DNA of 64,000 nucleotides from an uncultured bacterium (lineage in GTDB: Bacteria > Bacteroidota > Bacteroidia > Chitinophagales > CAIODY01). The translations under genes and the position numbers were made by a program. The stretch spans positions 8,127 to 72,126 of the forward strand of contig CAIODY010000034.1 of the NCBI GenBank assembly GCA_903857255.1. The letters run 5' to 3'. This document shows, piece by piece, positions 693 to 51,407 of this stretch (the first letter of the stretch is position 1; every line of letters begins with the position of its first letter). Under the pieces are notes generated by a model. The model was not told where the DNA came from. It did not search any database and was given only the letters and a program-made list of their open reading frames with translations.

Positions 693-1406
693 TTAGTTTG
701 TCAAGCCTATGTTTATACCCATTTGTATTGTTGGTAAAAGGTCAGTTTTTAGTTTAATGTTGTAAAATATTCTTGTATCAATACCATCAGATTCCCAATT
801 TTGTATTACTTCCGAAAATTGAGTTGAATTAACTGGATTGAAATCCGAGCGGATATACTTTAGTCGCAACCCCAAACCACCATAGAAATCAATTATAAAC
901 TTATTAATGTTAACTCTTTTTCCAACTAACCCATTCAGACTAAATACCTTTGTAAAATAAAAGGCATTATATTGAATCCCACTATTAAAAACATATGGGT
1001 AAACATCTGTATAATCGTATCTATAGTCGTGATAATATCGATAACAAAAAATAAGTTCAGAATAAATTGGATTTTTAATTTTTTCCATTCTCATTAAACC
1101 TAAGCCAATTTTATAATTCCCTTTCCCAGAATATTGTCCTTCAAAGCTATTTCCCTCATCACCATAATAAAAGACCTGCATCTTTGGTATATAATAAGAA
1201 CCTAAAATATCGAGATTTATATATCTACTAACTCTTCTCTCAATCCCCAATCTAAATTCACCAATAGTTATAGGCTGCAACAAATTCATCTTCACCGCCC
1301 ATCCATTCTTCCACGAAAAATGATAAGGTATAGTATCGGTTTTATTGCTTTGGCTATGTGCAGCTAAGGCAATAAAAAGCAAGGGAAAAAGAAATAGTTT
1401 TTTCAT
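693..1406 (-). CDS. Putative outer-membrane beta-barrel protein, tandem paralog A (DUF3575-like pattern)
   Basis: Signal peptide MKKLFLFPLLFIALAAHSQ. Shares the motifs YHFSWKNGWAVK, FYGGLGLR and C-terminal QMGINIGL with the ORFs at 1765-2460 and 2470-3132. Confidence 0.6.
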   Translation of the reverse strand: MKKLFLFPLLFIALAAHSQSNKTDTIPYHFSWKNGWAVKMNLLQPITIGEFRLGIERRVSRYINLDILGSYYIPKMQVFYYGDEGNSFEGQYSGKGNYKIGLGLMRMEKIKNPIYSELIFCYRYYHDYRYDYTDVYPYVFNSGIQYNAFYFTKVFSLNGLVGKRVNINKFIIDFYGGLGLRLKYIRSDFNPVNSTQFSEVIQNWESDGIDTRIFYNIKLKTDLLPTIQMGINIGLTN

Positions 1407-1741
1407 GTGGTAGGGGTTTTAAAGTTGATGGCATCTATAGCATAATATAAATCTTGTTCAGTCTGCGCTGTTGATTGATGATTATCATTTAATAATTTCC
1501 ATTCCATTGCCAATGTTGCCATATAATAGCCTAAATACCAAGGCTCATCCCCCGTACTCAATTCTTTGTTGACCCTATCACCCAATACTAATCCCGACCC
1601 ATTGCTACTGCCTTGAAACATAAAATTTTTCAATCGTTCTCTGTAAACCCAATATTTTTGTTTATTATCGTTAGTACCTCCAGCAATTAATTGAGAAATG
1701 CAAGAGAAGAAACAGATAAGTAAAAAGATTTTATTTTTCAT
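1403..1741 (-). CDS. Small secreted hypothetical protein, possibly the N-terminal remnant of a larger gene
   Basis: Signal peptide MKNKIFLLICFFSCISQLIA. Its stop overlaps the next gene's start (ATGA at 1403-1406). 112 aa with no recognisable complete domain. Confidence 0.4.
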   Translation of the reverse strand: MKNKIFLLICFFSCISQLIAGGTNDNKQKYWVYRERLKNFMFQGSSNGSGLVLGDRVNKELSTGDEPWYLGYYMATLAMEWKLLNDNHQSTAQTEQDLYYAIDAINFKTPTT

Positions 1742-1764
1742 GACTTTTGTTATTTGCTTATGAT

Positions 1765-2460
1765 TTAATTAACCTTTAACCCAATATTTATTCCTAATTG
1801 TAGAGATGGGATATACCCAAATTGAATAGTTTCTGGTAGCAATCCAATTCCGACTATTGTATGTGTTTCAGTTTGCCAATTAGTTGTAGAAATTATTGCC
1901 GATGAAGAATTTGAAGAAAATATACTTCTAATAAGTTTTGTTCTTAATCCTACTCCACCATAAAAATCAAAGACTAGCCTTTTTGTTTCCAAACGTTTGC
2001 CATAAAGAACCTGAAAGCAAGTTATTTGGTAATAGTATTGTTTAAAAATTTGAGGATTATCATTAGACAATGAGGCGTCTAATACACTTTTATAAAATGT
2101 CGATAATTCAAAGTAATTCGATTGTCTTGGAAATGGTAAAAAATATTTATAATCAATTCCCACCTTATACCCATCATACTTATTATTTATCGCATCATCT
2201 TTACTGAAAAACAAATTTGCAACTACATTAATAAATTTAGACCCAAAAATTTCAAAACTTGAATGATTTGTTATTTTCTTTTCGATATAGAATCTAATCT
2301 CTTCACCTGGTAAAATTTGTAGTGGTGCAATCTTAACTATCCATTTGTCGGCAAACGAAAAATGGTAATTAGTGGTATCCCTAATATTTTTATCCCCGCT
2401 GTACCCAAATGTTTTAATTGCAATAACTAACACAGAAAGCAGAATAAATATTTTCTTCAT
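1765..2460 (-). CDS. Putative outer-membrane beta-barrel protein, tandem paralog B
   Basis: Signal peptide. Motifs YHFSFADKWIVK, FYGGVGLR and QLGINIGL are shared with paralogs A and C. Confidence 0.6.
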   Translation of the reverse strand: MKKIFILLSVLVIAIKTFGYSGDKNIRDTTNYHFSFADKWIVKIAPLQILPGEEIRFYIEKKITNHSSFEIFGSKFINVVANLFFSKDDAINNKYDGYKVGIDYKYFLPFPRQSNYFELSTFYKSVLDASLSNDNPQIFKQYYYQITCFQVLYGKRLETKRLVFDFYGGVGLRTKLIRSIFSSNSSSAIISTTNWQTETHTIVGIGLLPETIQFGYIPSLQLGINIGLKVN

Positions 2461-2469
2461 TTTTGAATT

Positions 2470-3132
2470 TTATTTAGTTTTTAATCCAAAATTAATGCCT
2501 AATTGAATTGATGGAAAGAATGCGATTCCATCATGGTCAACATAATGATGCCATGGTGTTAAAATGGGGCTATCGGTATATTTTGTAAAAATTGTTTGAA
2601 CAAATTTTGTTCTTAGCCCAATGCCTCCGTAAAAATCAAAAAAAGCATTTTTGGCGTATTGTATTCTTCTTCCATAAAGAAATTGAATACAACCAACTTG
2701 ATAGAAATATTGTTCGTTCACTCCAATTAAGTTAAGGTGCTCATGAAAAGCATTATGATATTTTTTGTAAAAAACATCAACCTCAAAATAATTGTTAGTC
2801 TGTTTGATTAAATTAATGTAGGCAGCTCCAATTTTATAATTATCACTGCCAATATTTGTCTCTAAAAAAGCATCCCCACTTTGTACATTATCATAAAATG
2901 CATTTGATGGAAGTTTGTTAGTGAAATAGGCTCCAAACAATTCAACACTTTTATTCTTTGTGATTCTTTTTTCAACATAAACTCTTGCTTCAGCATCTAA
3001 CAAAGCAAAAGGTGCAACCTTTATAGCCCATCCATTTTTAAATGAAAAATGATAAGTGATAGAATCTTTTTTGCTTTGGCTTTTAGCATCCAAGGAAAAA
3101 AACATCAACAACAAAAGAATAAGTTTTTTCAC
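2470..3132 (-). CDS. Putative outer-membrane beta-barrel protein, tandem paralog C
   Basis: Signal peptide. Motifs YHFSFKNGWAIK, FYGGIGLR and QLGINFGL are shared with paralogs A and B. Confidence 0.6.
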   Translation of the reverse strand: MKKLILLLLMFFSLDAKSQSKKDSITYHFSFKNGWAIKVAPFALLDAEARVYVEKRITKNKSVELFGAYFTNKLPSNAFYDNVQSGDAFLETNIGSDNYKIGAAYINLIKQTNNYFEVDVFYKKYHNAFHEHLNLIGVNEQYFYQVGCIQFLYGRRIQYAKNAFFDFYGGIGLRTKFVQTIFTKYTDSPILTPWHHYVDHDGIAFFPSIQLGINFGLKTK

Positions 3133-28789: not shown

Positions 28790-30361
28790 TTAAGGTGGTG
28801 TGATTTTAAAAATTTGCAAGCCGTAAATTTTACCTTCCGTGATTTCTTTAAAATTATAAAAACTTTTCAAACTATCACTTTGGTCTGTCTTCCAATGCCA
28901 ATAAAAATAATAGTTGATGTTGTTTTTTTGCAACTCGTTTTTCAATCTTTCTCTTTCATTCCAATGCACTGGGTTGATAATTACATTTTGCAAATCGGTT
29001 GCAAAACATGCGTACTGCGTATCATCGTAGTTTCCACCTTCGCCCAATACAATCCCTTTAAGTTTAAAATCGTTTTTCAATCGCATTGAAATTTCATGAA
29101 CATATTTTTCCCTATTATTCAATTGCAGAGCAAGTGTAATCGGGAAAAGATAAAATGAAATTAAAAAAAAACTGACCAATCCGATTTTAAAAACTCGAGA
29201 AAACCCATTATTTAAAATCCATTGCTCAATAAAAACACACCCGAAAATTATTGTCAGAAAATTCAAAATAAAATAATACCGATACTCACCATGCATCAAC
29301 CAATAACCCGAACAATAAACTGGCATGCTCAGCAAAAATATTTTTAGATTTTTTTTCTGATGAGTATCATTTGTTTTTTGAAATACAGTAATAGCAGTTA
29401 TTAAAAGCAATGTGAAAACAAAAACACTAAATTGATTTATTATTTCCCAAAATGCAACTAATGATTCTTTGATGTGGTTTATCTCAAATAATATGGTGCT
29501 TTTCGAATCAAAAAAGCTCACATATTTTCCTTGCACGTAAAAAACATCTTCTGTAAAATCTGTAGCTGATGAATTAGATGGAAACAAAAAAAAATGTTGC
29601 GATGAATTTATATTACGAACCCAATTGTTCAGTTCTAATGAAATATCAATTTTGCCCGAAGTGCAGTAAATTAGCCCTATTTGATACTTCTGGCTGATAA
29701 AAAAAATCCATGGCAATGCAAAAATGAAAAATGAAATAAACACAACTGCTGCATTTTTAATTTTCCAATCATTGTTTTTGTGAAAAAAAACTATGCAAAC
29801 CAAAAAGTGTAATAAAAAAAATGGAAAGAAATAGTACTTTGAGAAATAACAAAATGCTGCTGCAACTCCCAACAAAATTGCCTGCTTTACATTTTGCAAA
29901 TATTCATCCTTAAAAATCAGAAAAAAATAAAAAAATAACCCTGCCAACAAACAAATATCCACTGCTATATCAAACAGGGAATAGAGAAGCAACAGACCAG
30001 TAGCAGTAAAGGTTACAGCAATTTTCAATCGTTTGTTTTTTATTGAAAAATTACTTAAAATATTAAAAGTAAAAACTGATAAAAATCCAATCAAAACGCT
30101 TGCAACTTTGGCAGCAATAATTTTATTTAAGCCAACTAATAAAAATGGCACAATGCACCATGAAATCATCGGACTCCAAAATCCGTTGATGGCATCTTTA
30201 AAATTTCCATTTGCATATTTCACAGCTATATTCGTGTATGATTCTCCATCAGGGTCAACAAAATATTTGTAGTGTGGAAATAAAACAATTGCCATTATTA
30301 AATATAATGCAGTGCAAAAAATAAAATAATTTTTCTCGGTATATGCAATCAGTTTTTTCAT
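28790..30361 (-). CDS. Polytopic membrane glycosyltransferase, GT-C/GT39 (ArnT/PMT-like)
   Basis: More than 10 predicted TM segments. First-loop acidic motif VDPDGESY. ATGA overlap with the murF stop. Confidence 0.6.
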   Translation of the reverse strand: MKKLIAYTEKNYFIFCTALYLIMAIVLFPHYKYFVDPDGESYTNIAVKYANGNFKDAINGFWSPMISWCIVPFLLVGLNKIIAAKVASVLIGFLSVFTFNILSNFSIKNKRLKIAVTFTATGLLLLYSLFDIAVDICLLAGLFFYFFLIFKDEYLQNVKQAILLGVAAAFCYFSKYYFFPFFLLHFLVCIVFFHKNNDWKIKNAAVVFISFFIFALPWIFFISQKYQIGLIYCTSGKIDISLELNNWVRNINSSQHFFLFPSNSSATDFTEDVFYVQGKYVSFFDSKSTILFEINHIKESLVAFWEIINQFSVFVFTLLLITAITVFQKTNDTHQKKNLKIFLLSMPVYCSGYWLMHGEYRYYFILNFLTIIFGCVFIEQWILNNGFSRVFKIGLVSFFLISFYLFPITLALQLNNREKYVHEISMRLKNDFKLKGIVLGEGGNYDDTQYACFATDLQNVIINPVHWNERERLKNELQKNNINYYFYWHWKTDQSDSLKSFYNFKEITEGKIYGLQIFKITPP

Positions 30362-36015: not shown

Positions 36016-36316
36016 TTTTAAATTCTGAATTTGGCTGCAAATGTAAGGCTTGAAATTTTTATTGTGGCAGAAAAAATGAGTAGAAAAAATTGTAGCCATG
36101 TTGGTAGAAATTAAAAACTGCTGTTGGATTTGTGGCAGGGATTGAAGCGAAAATCCTTTTGCTGCATAGGTTTTGAGCATTGGGCAAAAGATTGTAGCGG
36201 AAAGCCCGTGTGCCGCCCAACAAAATATTTTTGTGGAAGAAAAGATGCGCTATTCCTTTTGTAACAAAACATTGCAGCAAATCTGCTATTTTTGTTTTCG
36301 ATAAAAATGAAATGAA

Positions 36317-46080: not shown

Positions 46081-46650
46081 CTATAAACCTAAAAATTCTT
46101 TCACCAAAATTTCTGCTTCTTTTAAAGTAATTGCTAAATTATCATTCAAAATAGTTACATCAAAATGAGGTGCATGGCTAATTTCGTGTTCGGCTTTGTC
46201 CATTCGTTCTTGCAAACTTTTAGCATCTTCGGTGTTGCGATTTTGCAAGCGTTGAGCCAATGTTAAAATATCGGGCGGCTTAATAAAAATCGCCAAAGTT
46301 TCGGTGGGATATTTTTCTTTGATGTGCAACCCACCCACCACATCTACATCAAAAATCACATGTTTTTTTTCGTTCCAAATGCGTTGCAATTCACTCTTCA
46401 AAGTGCCGTAATACTTGCCTTCGTAAACCATTTCCCATTCTACAAATTCATCGTTTTCGATTTTATTTTTAAAATCATCGGGCGACATAAAATAGTAATC
46501 AACGCCATCTTTTTCGTTGGCTCGTTTTTCACGGGTTGCGGCACTTACTGAAAAAGCCAACTGTGGCAAATGTTGCAGCAAATGCTTTACCACTGTGGTT
46601 TTACCAGCACCGCTTGGCGCAGCAACAACTATTAATTTTCCATTTTGCAT
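46081..46650 (-). CDS. gmk: Guanylate kinase
   Basis: P-loop APSGAGKTT and YYGT motif. Confidence 0.95.
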   Translation of the reverse strand: MQNGKLIVVAAPSGAGKTTVVKHLLQHLPQLAFSVSAATREKRANEKDGVDYYFMSPDDFKNKIENDEFVEWEMVYEGKYYGTLKSELQRIWNEKKHVIFDVDVVGGLHIKEKYPTETLAIFIKPPDILTLAQRLQNRNTEDAKSLQERMDKAEHEISHAPHFDVTILNDNLAITLKEAEILVKEFLGL

Positions 46651-46713
46651 AAAGGGAAGGCGAAGGTAAAAAGAAAATGAGGATGGAAAATTAAATTATT
46701 GCTTATTAATAGC

Positions 46714-47277
46714 CTATTTATCCGAATTCAAAACCTCTTCAATTTTGTAATAAACTTCAATTAGGGTTTTATAATTCGGGTTGGATTTGTGAAACAAAAA
46801 TGAAGTGTAAAGTATCTGACCTTCATTCAGTTTTATTTCGTTGTCAATCTTCACAATTTTGTTTCTGAATTTCGATTTTTCGTACCAACGATTAAACACA
46901 TTGAATCGCAACTTTGATTTTTCATTTTCATCCGAACAGATGTAAACCAAAGCATTTTCAATGTTTGCAAAAAATTGTTCGATAATTGTTTCAATAGTAA
47001 TCGAAACGCCTGCATCCAAAGGTTCTGTTTCATCAGTTGCTTTGTCAATCACAATCTGATAAATGTTCGGAATTTCAACTTCTGCAATGGTTGAAAAAGT
47101 GTGGTCAACTACAAAAGCTATCCGATATAAAATAGAATTTTTGGTAGTGAAATTATAAGTGTTGGTGATGTTGTCGAAAACAAAATTATAAGGGCTTTGC
47201 AAAATGAATTCCTTTTTTTGTAAGCGATGACAAAGATTTTTTGCCTTTGATATAGGCAACAACATCTTCCTTATCAA
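46714..47277 (-). CDS. DUF6169-like hypothetical protein (start uncertain)
   Basis: The pattern SPYNFVF...YRIAFVVD...ALVYICSDENEKSKLRFNVFNRWY resembles what I recall of DUF6169. The track start is a TTG. The region overlaps a 48-codon ORF in another frame. Confidence 0.5.
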   Translation of the reverse strand: MIRKMLLPISKAKNLCHRLQKKEFILQSPYNFVFDNITNTYNFTTKNSILYRIAFVVDHTFSTIAEVEIPNIYQIVIDKATDETEPLDAGVSITIETIIEQFFANIENALVYICSDENEKSKLRFNVFNRWYEKSKFRNKIVKIDNEIKLNEGQILYTSFLFHKSNPNYKTLIEVYYKIEEVLNSDK

Positions 47278-47332
47278 CCATCATTTTTGAAAGTGATTTA
47301 AGAATATCGGCTTTTTTTATTCTTTTCTTCAT
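47186..47332 (-). CDS. 48-codon ORF upstream of, and overlapping, the DUF6169-like gene (either a separate small gene or its frameshifted N-terminus)
   Basis: Own translation: MKKRIKKADILKSLSKMMVDKEDVVAYIKGKKSLSSLTKKGIHFAKPL*. The frames meet at an A7 run (plus-strand T-run 47213-47219). Confidence 0.3.
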   Translation of the reverse strand: MKKRIKKADILKSLSKMMVDKEDVVAYIKGKKSLSSLTKKGIHFAKPL

Positions 47333-47649
47333 GATGCAAAATTAACTATTAAATTTGCTAAATAACAACAATTATTTTAGGGTTAAATGCAACGGCACTG
47401 CTCAATTCAATGCTTTAATAAAGAACATTGACAATGGCTGAAAGACAAACTTTATAAATTTTCAAGAACATGAAAAAACAAATTGAAACAAGAAGTTACC
47501 AAGCCACAACGCTAAAAGGCTATGCGGCAGCTTGGCGACAACTAATACAGCTTAACTTCTACGGTCACAAAAAGAGAAGAAAAAGTACCTTAATAAATTG
47601 GTTTTCTCTTGTCTTTTTTCTATCTTAGAAGCAATAACAAACCTACTTT

Positions 47650-48288
47650 ATGTACGAGCCAAAATATTATTACTTTGATGAAATATACTTTGAAACTATT
47701 CTTTTTGATGACACAACTGACGTGACAATTTTTGGGTATGTAAATGACAAGGAAAAGGACGAATTATTTTGTTGTGATTTTATTTGTCAGTTTTCAGTGT
47801 TGTATGATATTTTATTTTTTTCTGGAAATGATGGCGAAATTTTGATGAATGAAATAAGTGAAAAATTATCGCATGATTTGGAAATACCTACAGAGATAGA
47901 TGTTGTAGAGATTTTAGAAGACCCTTTGTTAATTGACAAACTCCTTCTTAAAGTTTATAAAACACATGAAAAAGATGAGTTTGGTATTTGGAAAGAATCA
48001 AATGAATCTTGTTATTTCATTGATGAAATTATCGATGAAAGCAAGCATCTTAAACCAATTACGGAAGAAGATTTGGACAAAGCTTTAGAGCATGTGAACT
48101 CATTAGAATATGCCAAAGAACAATTTGAAGAACACATGTTGCTTCTAAACAATGGCTACAAATATTACTTGCAACTAATTGAAAAAGAATTTACAGAAAA
48201 GGATGCAAGAAAAATGAGTGGATTAAAAGATGAATTGCTTTTTAGAATTGCATATTATTACAACAAAATAAAACAAAATGAAAAATGA
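47650..48288 (+). CDS. Strongly acidic hypothetical protein
   Basis: 212 aa with D+E clearly exceeding K+R by eye. ATGA overlap with the next gene. No family recognised. Confidence 0.5.
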   Translation: MYEPKYYYFDEIYFETILFDDTTDVTIFGYVNDKEKDELFCCDFICQFSVLYDILFFSGNDGEILMNEISEKLSHDLEIPTEIDVVEILEDPLLIDKLLLKVYKTHEKDEFGIWKESNESCYFIDEIIDESKHLKPITEEDLDKALEHVNSLEYAKEQFEEHMLLLNNGYKYYLQLIEKEFTEKDARKMSGLKDELLFRIAYYYNKIKQNEK

Positions 48289-48992
48289 AAATCAAAAAAC
48301 TATTTGATGAATTAGAAGCGAAGTACAAAAAAGAAAATGGACAAAGCATTTTTGATGAATCGGGAATGATAATGATTAAAGAAAATCAAAAATTAAATTT
48401 TGGTTTTTTTCCAGCAGGTTCAGGAATATTTGTGCCGAATAAAAGTAAAATTCAAGAAGCAGAAATTGAAGAAGGTGGTGCCATGATTTTAGGAAATGAT
48501 TTTGGAACTCTAACTTATCTAGACAAAATTAACAATGGCGATAAAATTGAAGGAGGTAGTTCAACAATTAGAAATTTGAAAAAACTTGGGCTGGAGAATA
48601 AGTCTTTTCATACCAACTTTTATTTGGGAATTCGTGATGATAAAACTCATGAAGGAACAACAATGACTGACAGAATTGCGCCTCTGGAACAAAACTATAA
48701 GAGCTTTTGTTTCAGATTTTTCTTGAAACAATTAGAAATAATAAATCCTAAAGTGGTGGTTTGTTTGGGACATGATGTTAGGTTGGCACTTGCTGAAAAT
48801 GTACAACAGTTCGCTATTTGGAAATCAAAAAGTATTTCGTTTAAAAAACTTTATTCAACAGATAATTTTGTAATTAATGTTGATGATGAGTTAGGAAAAC
48901 GAAAATTCATTGTTATTCCTCACCCATGTTTCGCCAGCAATTTAAAGAAAAATTACGTTGATAAAATTCTAAAAGAATTGACTTTAAATTAA
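48285..48992 (+). CDS. Divergent uracil-DNA-glycosylase-superfamily-fold protein
   Basis: AMILGNDFGT resembles UNG motif A (ILGQDPY). PKVVVCLGHDVRLAL and VIPHPCFAS resemble the UDG-fold core strand and motif B (HPSP). This is pattern recognition only. Confidence 0.45.
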   Translation: MKIKKLFDELEAKYKKENGQSIFDESGMIMIKENQKLNFGFFPAGSGIFVPNKSKIQEAEIEEGGAMILGNDFGTLTYLDKINNGDKIEGGSSTIRNLKKLGLENKSFHTNFYLGIRDDKTHEGTTMTDRIAPLEQNYKSFCFRFFLKQLEIINPKVVVCLGHDVRLALAENVQQFAIWKSKSISFKKLYSTDNFVINVDDELGKRKFIVIPHPCFASNLKKNYVDKILKELTLN

Positions 48993-49048
48993 AGTTTGCA
49001 AATGAAAATCTAACTCAAAAAATACCTCAAAATATTATTTTCAAACTT

Positions 49049-49056
49049 GTACCTTT
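49049..49056 (+). promoter_or_regulatory. Bacteroidota -7 box (TAnnTTTG) upstream of korA
   Basis: tacctttg lies 66 nt upstream of the korA ATG. No clear -33 TTG. Confidence 0.3.
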
Positions 49057-49122
49057 GCGCCGCAAAAAGTCAAACGACTTTTGTGTTCAATCAACAATCA
49101 ATCAATCGTAAATCAAAAATAG

Positions 49123-50976
49123 ATGAGTGCTACAATCGAAAAATTAAGTGATGTTGTCATAAAATTCGCTGGCGATTCGGGCGATGGAATGCAATTAACA
49201 GGTGGTCAGTTTACCAATGCTGCTGCATTGTATGGCAACGACTTGGCTACTTTCCCCGATTTTCCTGCCGAAATTCGTGCGCCACAAGGCACTATTCCTG
49301 GTGTTTCGGGCTTTCAATTACATTTTAGTTCAAACGAAATTTTTACACCTGGCGATAATTGCGATGTATTAGTTGCCATGAATGCTGCGGCTGTAAAATC
49401 AAATTTATTCAACTTAAAAAAAGGTGGAATTATCATTGTAGATACCAATGGTTTTGATGCAAAAAATTTGCGCTTGGCAAATTATGCCGAAGGCGCAAAT
49501 CCTTTAGAGGATGGCACTTTGGATGGTTATAAACTCTACAAAATTGATGTTACGAAATTAACTCGTGAAGCATTAGCCGACATGGCTGGCTTGGGCATGA
49601 AAGAAAAAGACCGCTCGAAAAATATGTTTGTGTTGGGTTTTTTATATTGGATGTATAATCGCAACATGGATTTTACCATCAATTTCTTGACAGAAAAATT
49701 TGGTAAAAAACCAGAGATTTTAGAATCGAATATAAAAGTGTTGAAAGCTGGTTACAATTATGGCGACACCACTGAAACTTTCATGACACGATATGAAGTG
49801 CCAAAAGCAAAAGTTGAAGCTGGAACTTATCGCAGCATCATGGGTAATCAGGCTGTGGCCATGGGTTTTGTGGCTGCTTCACAAAAAAGTGGCTTACCAT
49901 TATTCTTAGCTTCTTACCCAATCACACCAGCATCAGATATTTTACACGACTTATCAAAATATAAAAACTTTGGCGTACGCACTATGCAATGCGAAGATGA
50001 AATTGCATCTATCTGTGCAGCCATAGGAGCAGCTTACGGCGGAAACTTAGCTATTACAACATCTTCAGGACCTGGCATTGCGTTAAAAGGTGAAGCGATT
50101 GGTTTGGCAGTGATGATGGAATTGCCATTAGTTGTTGTAAATATTCAACGTGGTGGACCTTCTACAGGTTTACCAACTAAAACTGAACAAGCAGATTTAT
50201 TACAAGCATTATATGGTAGAAATGGCGAATGCCCTATGGTAGTGATTTCTACGTCAACACCAAGTGATTGTTTTGAAGTTACAATTGAAGCATGTCGCAT
50301 CGCTTTGCAACACATGGTGCCTGTTATGTTATTGAGCGATGGTTATATTGCCAATGGTGCAGAGCCTTGGAAATTCCCTAAAGCCAGTGATATTGCGCCT
50401 ATCGAAGTAAAATTTAAAACAAAATTGGATGAAGGCGAAACAAAATTTTTGCCTTACAAACGCGATGAAAAATTAGGTCGTCCGTGGGTAACACCTGGAA
50501 CGCCAGAGTTGATGCACCGTTTGGGTGGTTTAGAAAAACAACATGAAACAGGTAATGTAAGCTACGACCCTGAAAATCATGAATTCATGATTAAAATGAG
50601 AGCTGCAAAAGTGGAGAAAGTAGCTGATTATATGCCTTTGCAAAAAATTGAAGTGGGTGCTGAAAAAGGAAAAATATTAGTGTTGGGTTGGGGTTCAACT
50701 TATGGTTCGATTAAATCAACAGTGTTAGATTTGATTGCCGAAGGTTATTCTATCAGCCATGCACACGTTCGCTACATGAATCCGTTGCCAAAAAATTTGG
50801 GTGATGTGTTGAAAAATTTCGAACACGTAATTATTCCTGAAATCAACAGCGGACAATTTATTAAAGTGGTTCGTGATAAATATTTGGTAGATGCAAAAGG
50901 TTATAACAAAACACAAGGAACACCAATTTCAAAAACAGAATTGAAGGAATTTATTAAGACCAATTATAGCAAATAA
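49123..50976 (+). CDS. korA: 2-oxoglutarate/2-oxoacid:ferredoxin oxidoreductase, alpha subunit
   Basis: N-terminus VIKFAGDSGDGMQLTG; 617 aa; followed by the beta subunit. Confidence 0.9.
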   Translation: MSATIEKLSDVVIKFAGDSGDGMQLTGGQFTNAAALYGNDLATFPDFPAEIRAPQGTIPGVSGFQLHFSSNEIFTPGDNCDVLVAMNAAAVKSNLFNLKKGGIIIVDTNGFDAKNLRLANYAEGANPLEDGTLDGYKLYKIDVTKLTREALADMAGLGMKEKDRSKNMFVLGFLYWMYNRNMDFTINFLTEKFGKKPEILESNIKVLKAGYNYGDTTETFMTRYEVPKAKVEAGTYRSIMGNQAVAMGFVAASQKSGLPLFLASYPITPASDILHDLSKYKNFGVRTMQCEDEIASICAAIGAAYGGNLAITTSSGPGIALKGEAIGLAVMMELPLVVVNIQRGGPSTGLPTKTEQADLLQALYGRNGECPMVVISTSTPSDCFEVTIEACRIALQHMVPVMLLSDGYIANGAEPWKFPKASDIAPIEVKFKTKLDEGETKFLPYKRDEKLGRPWVTPGTPELMHRLGGLEKQHETGNVSYDPENHEFMIKMRAAKVEKVADYMPLQKIEVGAEKGKILVLGWGSTYGSIKSTVLDLIAEGYSISHAHVRYMNPLPKNLGDVLKNFEHVIIPEINSGQFIKVVRDKYLVDAKGYNKTQGTPISKTELKEFIKTNYSK

Positions 50977-51054: not shown

Positions 51055-51407
51055 ATGGCTAGTGGAAGTGAAAATATTATTTTGCAAAAAACATTTTCTT
51101 TTGCTGTCAGAATTGTAAAGTTGAATTGGTTTTTGATAGAGAAGAAAAAAAGTTTGTGCTTGCCAAACAAGTTTTAAGAAGCGGCACTTCGATTGGTGCT
51201 AATGCCGAAGAAGCCGTTGCAAGCCGCAGTAGAAAAGAGTTTATAGCTAAGTTTGGAATTGTTTATTCAGAAGCTAAAGAAACCAAATATTGGCTACGAC
51301 TTTTAAAAGAAACAGAATTGATTGATGAAAAAATGTTCTTATCACTGCTTGATGATTGCGAAGAAATAATAAAGATTGTTTTCAAAATCATTGAGTCATC
51401 AAAATAA
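51055..51407 (+). pseudogene. Four-helix-bundle protein (23S rRNA intervening-sequence protein family), frameshifted
   Basis: Frame 1 (51055-51177): MASGSENIILQKTFSFAVRIVKLNWFLIEKKK... Then the track ORF (51126-51407): ...EEKKFVLAKQVLRSGTSIGANAEEA...EAKETKYWLRLL. Together they reconstitute the family pattern. The frames switch at the A7 run 51145-51151. Confidence 0.7.

Follow-up and report, generated by a model that had tools for sequence, protein, structure and literature searches.

Enzymes of the uracil-DNA glycosylase (UDG) superfamily are proven anti-phage effectors, the described examples being Brig1 (PMC11078745), Brig2 (10.1101/2025.10.29.685425), and Brig3 (10.64898/2026.02.25.707755). 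Brig1 acts on alpha-glucosyl-hydroxymethylcytosine (alpha-glucosyl-hmC) (PMC11078745), Brig2 on thymidine derivatives (10.1101/2025.10.29.685425), and Brig3 on 5hmC (10.64898/2026.02.25.707755). Brig3 also has an operon partner, BapA, an ASCH-fold, DNA-binding hydrolase encoded downstream that acts on DNA and not on the enzyme (10.64898/2026.02.25.707755). Here we describe a small block of genes that lies between the housekeeping genes gmk and korA in a 64,000-nucleotide stretch of DNA (hereafter the window) from contig CAIODY010000034.1 of an uncultured bacterium. Indications of the host lineage point to a freshwater Chitinophagales-like member of the Bacteroidota, the closest KorA relatives being from Bacteroidota and Chitinophagales metagenome-assembled genomes.

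The safest description of the block is an accessory region of two mobile two-gene cassettes, A on the minus strand and B on the plus strand, arranged tail-out. We favour, with somewhat more confidence than doubt, a more specific explanation, namely that the block is an acquired islet in which cassette B encodes a Brig-like defence glycosylase, here called UDG-A, together with a new accessory partner, here called p212. The features of the block are as follows.

46684-48992, no strand: the inserted block, about 2.31 kb, its extent defined against the empty gmk-korA site of a close relative (L027)
46714-47202, minus strand: DUF6169 gene (PF19666), 162 amino acids (aa), isoelectric point (pI) 4.99, downstream gene of cassette A
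47186-47332, minus strand: gene for a 48-aa basic protein, pI 10.25, upstream gene of cassette A, with a 17-nt overlap with the DUF6169 start
47333-47591, no strand: non-conserved part of the spacer, holding most of a 52-codon open reading frame (ORF); identity to the related locus L020 is at background (0.25-0.58) left of 47600
47592-47649, plus strand: conserved 58-bp region upstream of p212, within the block shared with L020; 3' half of a hairpin, then a U-run
47650-48288, plus strand: p212, 212 aa, of an undescribed family, with an acidic beta-rich N-terminal domain (residues 1 to about 135, net charge -23) and a helical C-terminal domain
48285-48992, plus strand: UDG-A, UDG superfamily, 235 aa, pI 8.9, its start overlapping the p212 stop (ATGA, 48285-48288)

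A first-pass annotation, made from the letters alone, had listed a DUF6169-like gene, an overlapping 48-codon ORF on the minus strand, the 52-codon ORF, a 212-aa acidic protein, and a UDG-fold protein between gmk and korA, and all of these ORFs are present at the coordinates it gave. The identities proposed there are borne out by a Pfam match for DUF6169, by the low pI of p212, and by an AlphaFold model searched with Foldseek for UDG-A; the 48-codon ORF corresponds to a conserved partner gene found upstream of DUF6169 at other loci, as described below.

UDG-A has 72 homologues of about 225-250 aa. The Pfam UDG family (PF03167) matches it at 7.7e-5 and 23.2 bits, just below the cut-off of 24.3, and is recorded for about 14 of the homologues. 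Foldseek comparison of the model (pLDDT 86.9, pTM 0.87) with the PDB returned UdgX, the family-4 UDGs of Thermotoga and Thermus, TDG, and SMUG1 at probabilities of 0.98-1.00; the best E-value was 3.8e-6, with TM-scores of only about 0.45-0.5 and identities of 16-20%. On the strength of this model we are confident in predicting an alpha/beta UDG fold for UDG-A. Two motifs, L69-G-N-D-F-G74 (motif A) and H213-P214, are invariant in 64 sequences and follow strands 66-70 and 206-211 of the model, respectively. Family 1 UDGs carry a catalytic Asp in the motif GQDPY and family 2 an Asn in GINPG, and Asp72 of UDG-A likely occupies the same position. Like the family 4 UDGs and UdgX, UDG-A combines the alpha/beta fold with a motif A after beta-1 and an HP motif after the last core strand. 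It differs from family 4 in reading GNDFG where those enzymes have GE(A/G/Q)PG, and in lacking their four-Cys 4Fe-4S signature (C160 is invariant and C142 nearly so). With the family 4 models TIGR00758 and NF040953 it reaches 18.9 and 21.2 bits, where the cut-offs are 125.3 and 250.

We propose that UDG-A is an active monofunctional DNA glycosylase, with Asp72 as its catalytic-type residue and His213 in the HP motif. p212 and UDG-A would form one operon with translational coupling of the two genes, p212 being made first from the shared transcript as an accessory partner. Like Brig1-3, UDG-A would excise a base present in the DNA, probably modified, of invading phages, and the resulting abasic sites would stop replication. 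The very acidic N-terminal domain of p212 may gate the basic DNA enzyme or widen its range. p212 would not be strictly required, because each gene of cassette B also occurs alone.

The defence function that we infer for cassette B draws on several likenesses to the Brig enzymes. UDG-A resembles Brig1-3 in being a small UDG-fold enzyme of sporadic occurrence, encoded in AT-rich and apparently acquired DNA, that has kept catalytic-type residues; relatives of Brig2 have also been reported from AT-rich regions. Cassette B resembles the Brig3 locus in being an overlapping two-gene operon with an accessory protein (10.64898/2026.02.25.707755). The accessory proteins themselves differ, p212 being acidic, encoded upstream, and devoid of an ASCH domain, whereas BapA is DNA-binding, encoded downstream, and of the ASCH fold. 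We considered p212 as a BapA homologue and rejected it for these reasons; the downstream ASCH-fold DNA-binding hydrolase of the Brig3-BapA operon has no counterpart here, and p212 has neither a Pfam family nor a significant fold match. The locus also differs from those of Brig1-3 in lying outside any recognisable defence island.

p212 has a pI of 4.40, with 50 acidic (D+E) against 23 basic (K+R) residues, and searches of Pfam, NCBIfam, PADLOC, and PHROG assign it to no family. Its close homologues number 16, and a full profile search gave 166 cluster representatives, mostly of about 200 aa; a metagenome scan with the p212 profile yielded only 4 loci. The model (pLDDT 84.1) shows a beta-rich N-terminal domain and a helical C-terminal domain, the latter containing the motif ARKxSGLKDELLFRIA. 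In all 16 close homologues the N-terminal domain is strongly acidic, with a net charge of -19 to -28, while the C-terminal domain is neutral to basic. Fold searches of the PDB and BFVD gave only sub-threshold OB/SSB-like matches (E of at least 3e-3, TM 0.2-0.3 on the query), and a sequence search of the PDB with the p212 profile gave nothing significant. Some long relatives carry helical N- or C-terminal extensions, which have no Pfam match except in P0222 (546 aa). In this protein the p212 N-terminal domain (residues 1-149) is in frame with a complete Csm6 (CARF, 6H, HEPN), a join that is either a real fusion or a gene-calling read-through.

The genes found next to p212 are not always the same.

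Window and L017-19: UDG-A downstream of p212, overlapping (UDG-A of L017-19, 41% identity)
L020-21: UDG-B downstream of p212, overlapping (29% identity to UDG-A; Pfam UDG 9.1e-9)
L003-8: DUF1643 gene downstream of p212, overlapping (4.8e-26)
L013-16: gene for a 165-aa protein downstream of p212, overlapping (phrog_5018 1.3e-9; weak PDDEXK_5)
P0087: overlapping gene downstream of p212, the gene being cut
L104 and L105: divergent p212, no recognisable enzyme partner

The partner enzymes are basic in four of five cases (pI 8.6-8.9). At L020 and L021, p212 is 80% identical at the amino-acid level and lies beside an ammonium-transporter gene, without DUF6169. Positions 47592-48297 of the window are 83.8% identical to L020 574-1279, with sharp edges: identity is mostly 0.8-0.95 over about 47600-48300, dips to about 0.6 at 48020-48130, and is at background beyond both edges. 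The L020 UDG is only 29% identical behind a near-unchanged p212, and the effector gene has therefore been exchanged. The 165-aa partner is possibly a PD-(D/E)XK nuclease; in L013 (64-4364) and L014 it and p212 lie directly upstream of an AlwI-type restriction-modification system, comprising genes for a helix-turn-helix controller, a D12 methyltransferase, and the endonuclease. The DUF1643 protein of L003 contains, by eye, MUG-like GINPS and HPxHPS motifs, and DUF1643 is a candidate member of the Pfam UDG clan. When this protein was tested for homology to UDG, hhalign (against A2) gave a probability of 0.2, and DUF1643 has no sequence relative in the PDB.

These pairings suggest, tentatively, that p212 could define a hitherto undescribed, modular two-component immune or toxin-gating system, mostly of Bacteroidota, in which it serves as universal gatekeeper or sensor before interchangeable effectors that attack nucleic acids and are swapped exactly at the p212/effector junction. 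The effectors would be the two UDG clades, DUF1643, the PD-(D/E)XK-like nuclease, and, by fusion, Csm6, and p212 might for example be a DNA-mimic plug released on infection.

The same observations bear on a rather doubtful alternative, in which cassette B (perhaps also cassette A) is a toxin-antitoxin or addiction module. UDG-A would be a toxin that damages the DNA of its own cell and p212 a Ugi-like DNA-mimic antitoxin, leading to post-segregational killing or abortive infection. Cassette B has the overlapping bicistronic operon of a type II module, with the antitoxin-like gene upstream and a 4-nt ATGA overlap, and overlaps are also present in L003, L013, L017, L020, and P0087. In type II systems a toxin is not maintained without its antitoxin, yet homologues of UDG-A (46-50% identity) occur without p212, and are evidently tolerated, at L009, L010/L011, and L012. 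In L012 the homologue stands alone among housekeeping genes of a Mucilaginibacter chromosome, and in L010 among genes of no known identity. In L009 it follows an unrelated 115-aa gene and lies near a UvrD-nuclease and a DUF433/DUF5615 pair, the latter presumably of the toxin-antitoxin type; the UvrD-nuclease also matches GajB, but only through the similarity general to UvrD proteins, and we gave this no weight as a sign of defence. The orphan p212 genes of L104 and L105 likewise speak against an obligate pair. Both cassettes share with such modules two small overlapping genes and the occurrence as mobile units among housekeeping genes, and, as with Ugi, an acidic protein stands beside a basic DNA enzyme; the partners of cassette B can each stand alone, however, and no known toxin-antitoxin family matches. 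The charge of the N-terminal domain in all homologues, set against mostly basic partners, speaks for this alternative, as does the pairing of p212 with different DNA-binding enzymes, which a generic mimic could manage, and the neutral-to-basic C-terminal domain could bind DNA for autoregulation. Against this, p212 is much larger than Ugi, p56, and SAUGI, and has no structural match to these or to any DNA mimic. That both genes also exist singly counts against toxin-antitoxin action in the strict sense; the acidity of the N-terminal domain, the basic nature of the partners, and their exchange nevertheless keep p212 in play as a gatekeeper or DNA mimic. Both cassettes have a toxin-antitoxin-like two-gene architecture, and the earlier suggestion of a function in "defence or addiction" is consistent with what was found and plausible.

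A second functional alternative, that UDG-A is a lineage-specific housekeeping glycosylase serving the repair of uracil, hypoxanthine, or an oxidised base, with p212 as an OB-fold-like cofactor and the block as part of the variable core genome, seems to us very improbable. The fold and motifs of UDG-A do match those of repair UDGs, and the neighbours of the locus include the nucleotide-metabolism genes dut and gmk; a repair enzyme would, however, hardly be expected to be missing from a relative with 96-97% identical flanking proteins (L027, below), to lie in a block of low GC content, to be scattered over unrelated contexts, or to be swapped behind a nearly identical p212. As for the cofactor, the weak OB/SSB-like matches of the p212 N-terminal domain are not significant at the values given above, and a domain with a net charge of -23 would be a poor binder of single-stranded DNA. 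In keeping with a cellular role, plasmids yielded no member of the three families (DUF6169, p212, and UDG-A), and phages none of p212 or UDG-A. Given the distribution, a repair role is unlikely.

The explanation that we favour, an acquired islet carrying a Brig-like glycosylase, also depends on the history of the block. It is flanked by gmk (46081-46650, minus strand; Guanylate_kin 8.6e-43) and korA (49123-50976, plus strand; POR/POR_N in Pfam). Of the 80 loci found by scanning genomes with KorA, only one, L027 (CAIQHW010000191), has gmk adjacent to korA. There, Gmk and KorA are 96% and 97% identical to those of the window, the gap between the genes is 190 bp, and the islet is absent. By blastn, L027 1457-2048 corresponds to window 46091-46680 and L027 2079-3845 to window 48995-50761; by eye, homology stops at about 46683 on the left and restarts at about 48993 on the right, directly after the UDG-A stop codon. 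At the empty site about 28 unrelated bp replace the block, with no target-site duplication visible by eye. The 5' side of korA (49000-49122) is a synteny breakpoint among near relatives, because others carry different genes there: accA and a DUF6913 gene in L022, and feoB in L024. L022 and L023, with KorA 98-99% identical, have no homology to the window upstream of korA. By this comparison, which leaves the polarity of the change unfixed, 46684-48992 appears to be a horizontally acquired accessory block at the breakpoint. One further feature lies just outside it.

49050-49057, plus strand: -7 promoter box of korA, TACCTTTG, found by pattern match, in the flank just right of the junction and outside the insert

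The surroundings of this box, TTTTCAAAC..TACCTTTGCGCCGC, are conserved in the window, L027, and L024, and variant in L022.

The composition of the block is in line with acquisition. Its guanine-plus-cytosine (GC) content (46681-48994) is 0.298, against a mean of 0.350 over the 64 kb (standard deviation 0.021, 2.3-kb windows), which is the lowest of all such windows; the deviation is real but modest. Coding GC is 0.31 for DUF6169, 0.28 for p212, and 0.30 for the UDG-fold gene, compared with 0.38 for both gmk and korA. The marks of a classical genomic island or integrative element (integrase or transposase, tRNA target, direct repeats) were not found: there is no tRNA gene in the window, no convincing terminal direct or inverted repeat at the block ends, and no integrase among the genes called about 6 kb either side, all of which belong to cellular families. 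An identical islet is present on several independent metagenome contigs.

The first-pass annotation had described a small accessory islet between housekeeping genes, and the empty site in L027, the low GC, and the recurrence of both gene pairs in unrelated neighbourhoods agree with this. Its impression by eye of an AT-rich stretch is upheld by the windowed GC, and its failure to find a flanking tRNA, integrase, or terminal repeat was repeated here. It had reasoned that, were the region ancestral, every relative would carry this gene set in this position and its composition would be unremarkable; instead, L027 lacks the block, which is the 2.3 kb of lowest GC in the window. Where it erred was in treating the islet as one unit. 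The islet appears to be two independent cassettes, since each pair recurs elsewhere without the other and is sharply bounded at the DNA level.

It is nonetheless conceivable, if rather unlikely, that the block was ancestral to the lineage of the window and L027 and was deleted in L027, or that it is what erosion has left of a larger mobile element or prophage, the mobility genes having been lost. In favour of this, the indel lacks an outgroup to polarise it, the empty site contains about 28 unrelated bp, and a target-site duplication, an integrase, and a tRNA are all absent. Both cassettes, on the other hand, are self-contained in other contexts, and the composition of the block deviates from that of its flanks. 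Searches for a mobile carrier point the same way: scans of IMG/VR found no relative of p212, DUF6169, UDG-A, or DUF1643, tblastn against plasmids none of DUF6169, p212, or UDG-A, and tblastn against INPHARED phages none of p212 or UDG-A. The sole phage matches, which would suit a remnant, are weak ones to DUF6169 (26-29% identity, E 1e-6 to 1e-7); they lie in MT836080.1 (9601-9996) and MT836892.1 (705-1112), two contigs from human faeces that are labelled "Bacteriophage sp." and carry no annotation. This alternative concerns only the history of the block and does not conflict with the function proposed for cassette B.

Several observations weigh against our explanation of the locus. No homology between UDG-A and Brig1 was detected with a 64-sequence profile in hhalign (probability 0.3, E 0.22; the Brig1 query sequence was machine-read from the PDF of the paper's supplement), and the likeness to Brig2 and Brig3 is by description only. 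PADLOC matched none of the five islet ORFs and none of the five scanned partner proteins of relatives, and NCBIfam and PHROG yielded nothing of use for the islet proteins. There is no recognisable defence island around the islet, its neighbours being housekeeping genes. p212 lacks a significant fold match, so that its role is guesswork, and two divergent p212 genes (L104, L105) have no recognisable enzyme partner; the partner census covers about 8 contexts and not all 166 representatives. Finally, a gain here is not distinguished from a loss in L027 by any outgroup, gmk lying beside korA in no other relative.

Cassette A consists of the 48-aa basic protein and DUF6169. The ORF 46714-47277 matches PF19666 at 1.1e-14 and 54.7 bits, above the cut-off of 27. 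DUF6169 has 164 homologues, almost all of 162-168 aa, those listed carrying PF19666, and the true DUF6169 gene is therefore 46714-47202, which is intact; in an alignment with 29 other members, the protein of the window shows 57-78% identity to them. A frameshifted DUF6169 was considered and rejected, because homologues of a trial 205-aa fusion with the 48-codon ORF across an A7 run cover the DUF6169 part only (79%). Homologues of the 48-aa protein lie just upstream of DUF6169 and overlap its start in L106 (48 aa), L108 (49 aa), and L107 (uncalled), so that the small partner accompanies DUF6169 in four of four contexts examined. The L106 protein reads MKKKLKKSDILQSLSKMMVDKEDVVAYIKGKKSLSSLTKKGIHFAKPI, and the homologues have a common C-terminal end, ...TKKGI(H/K)FAKP(L/I). 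This conservation argues that the 48-codon ORF is a real gene. These three loci are different neighbourhoods in which the DUF6169 pair occurs without p212 or UDG, and at the DNA level window 47356-46724 matches L106 1788-2419 at 80.9%. In L108 (4017-5501) the pair of 49-aa gene and DUF6169 adjoins a SUKH-4 immunity-family gene, beside a yceD-rpmF-plsX housekeeping cluster. Cassette A looks like a toxin-antitoxin-like pair. We found no mention of DUF6169 in the collection of papers searched and no annotation of its constant 48-49-aa upstream partner, and a sequence search of the PDB with the DUF6169 profile gave nothing significant. The constant basic partner is the first context clue for DUF6169.

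The two cassettes diverge from an AT-rich spacer, put at roughly 300 bp in the first-pass annotation and measured here as 317 bp (47333-47649) with a GC of 0.315. The 52-codon ORF (47470-47628, plus strand) exists as that annotation had listed it, but was rejected as a gene and is probably spurious: L020 shows no conservation of the ORF beyond its final 35 bp or so, which fall within the shared block 47592-48297, and it was called on just one of several identical contigs. The conserved 47592-47649 is likely the promoter or leader of p212. Bacteroidota -7-like boxes (TAnnTTTG) occur at 47337-47344 (minus strand) and 47350-47357 (plus strand); a sigma-70 promoter scan is uninformative for Bacteroidota. 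Directly upstream of p212, a hairpin followed by a U-run (47560-47625, plus strand) is part of the minimum-free-energy fold of the spacer (z = -2.06) and may serve p212 as a leader or as an insulating terminator. Nothing in Rfam scored above threshold on the islet, the sole match being a sub-threshold patAB-leader at the hairpin (E 0.25).

Elsewhere in the window, the sole Rfam family above threshold is the Flavo-1 sRNA at 36130-36215 (plus strand; 57.6 bits, gathering score 42). A second low-GC block, 693-3132 (minus strand; 0.29-0.30 in 1-kb windows), contains four consecutive ORFs of 237, 112, 231, and 220 aa, none with a Pfam match, and may be a further accessory insert. A 523-aa ORF at 28790-30361 (minus strand; GC about 0.295-0.306) also has no Pfam match and lies between genes for a class-V aminotransferase and a Mur ligase. 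Within the korAB operon, a gene for a 93-aa four-helix-bundle protein (51126-51407, plus strand; 23S_rRNA_IVP 2.3e-21, TIGR02436 3.4e-25) is polymorphic, being present in L023 and L025 and absent from L022, L024, and L026, where korB starts about 100 bp or less after korA.

Glycosylase defence has been recognised only in 2024-2026 (Brig1-3 and the Dag families), mainly through functional screens, since these enzymes have become too dissimilar to be recognised from sequence. The locus described here contributes a UDG clade without detectable similarity to Brig1, as well as a partner family that is conserved yet unannotated, counts 166 cluster representatives, and moves together with DNA enzymes that can replace one another. 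Even if none of the functional proposals holds, it illustrates cleanly how small cassettes come to lie at synteny breakpoints without the help of integrases. If p212 does gate or direct its enzymes, more hidden effectors could be tracked down through their association with it, and it could be a natural protein regulator of glycosylases, relevant to base-editing tools.

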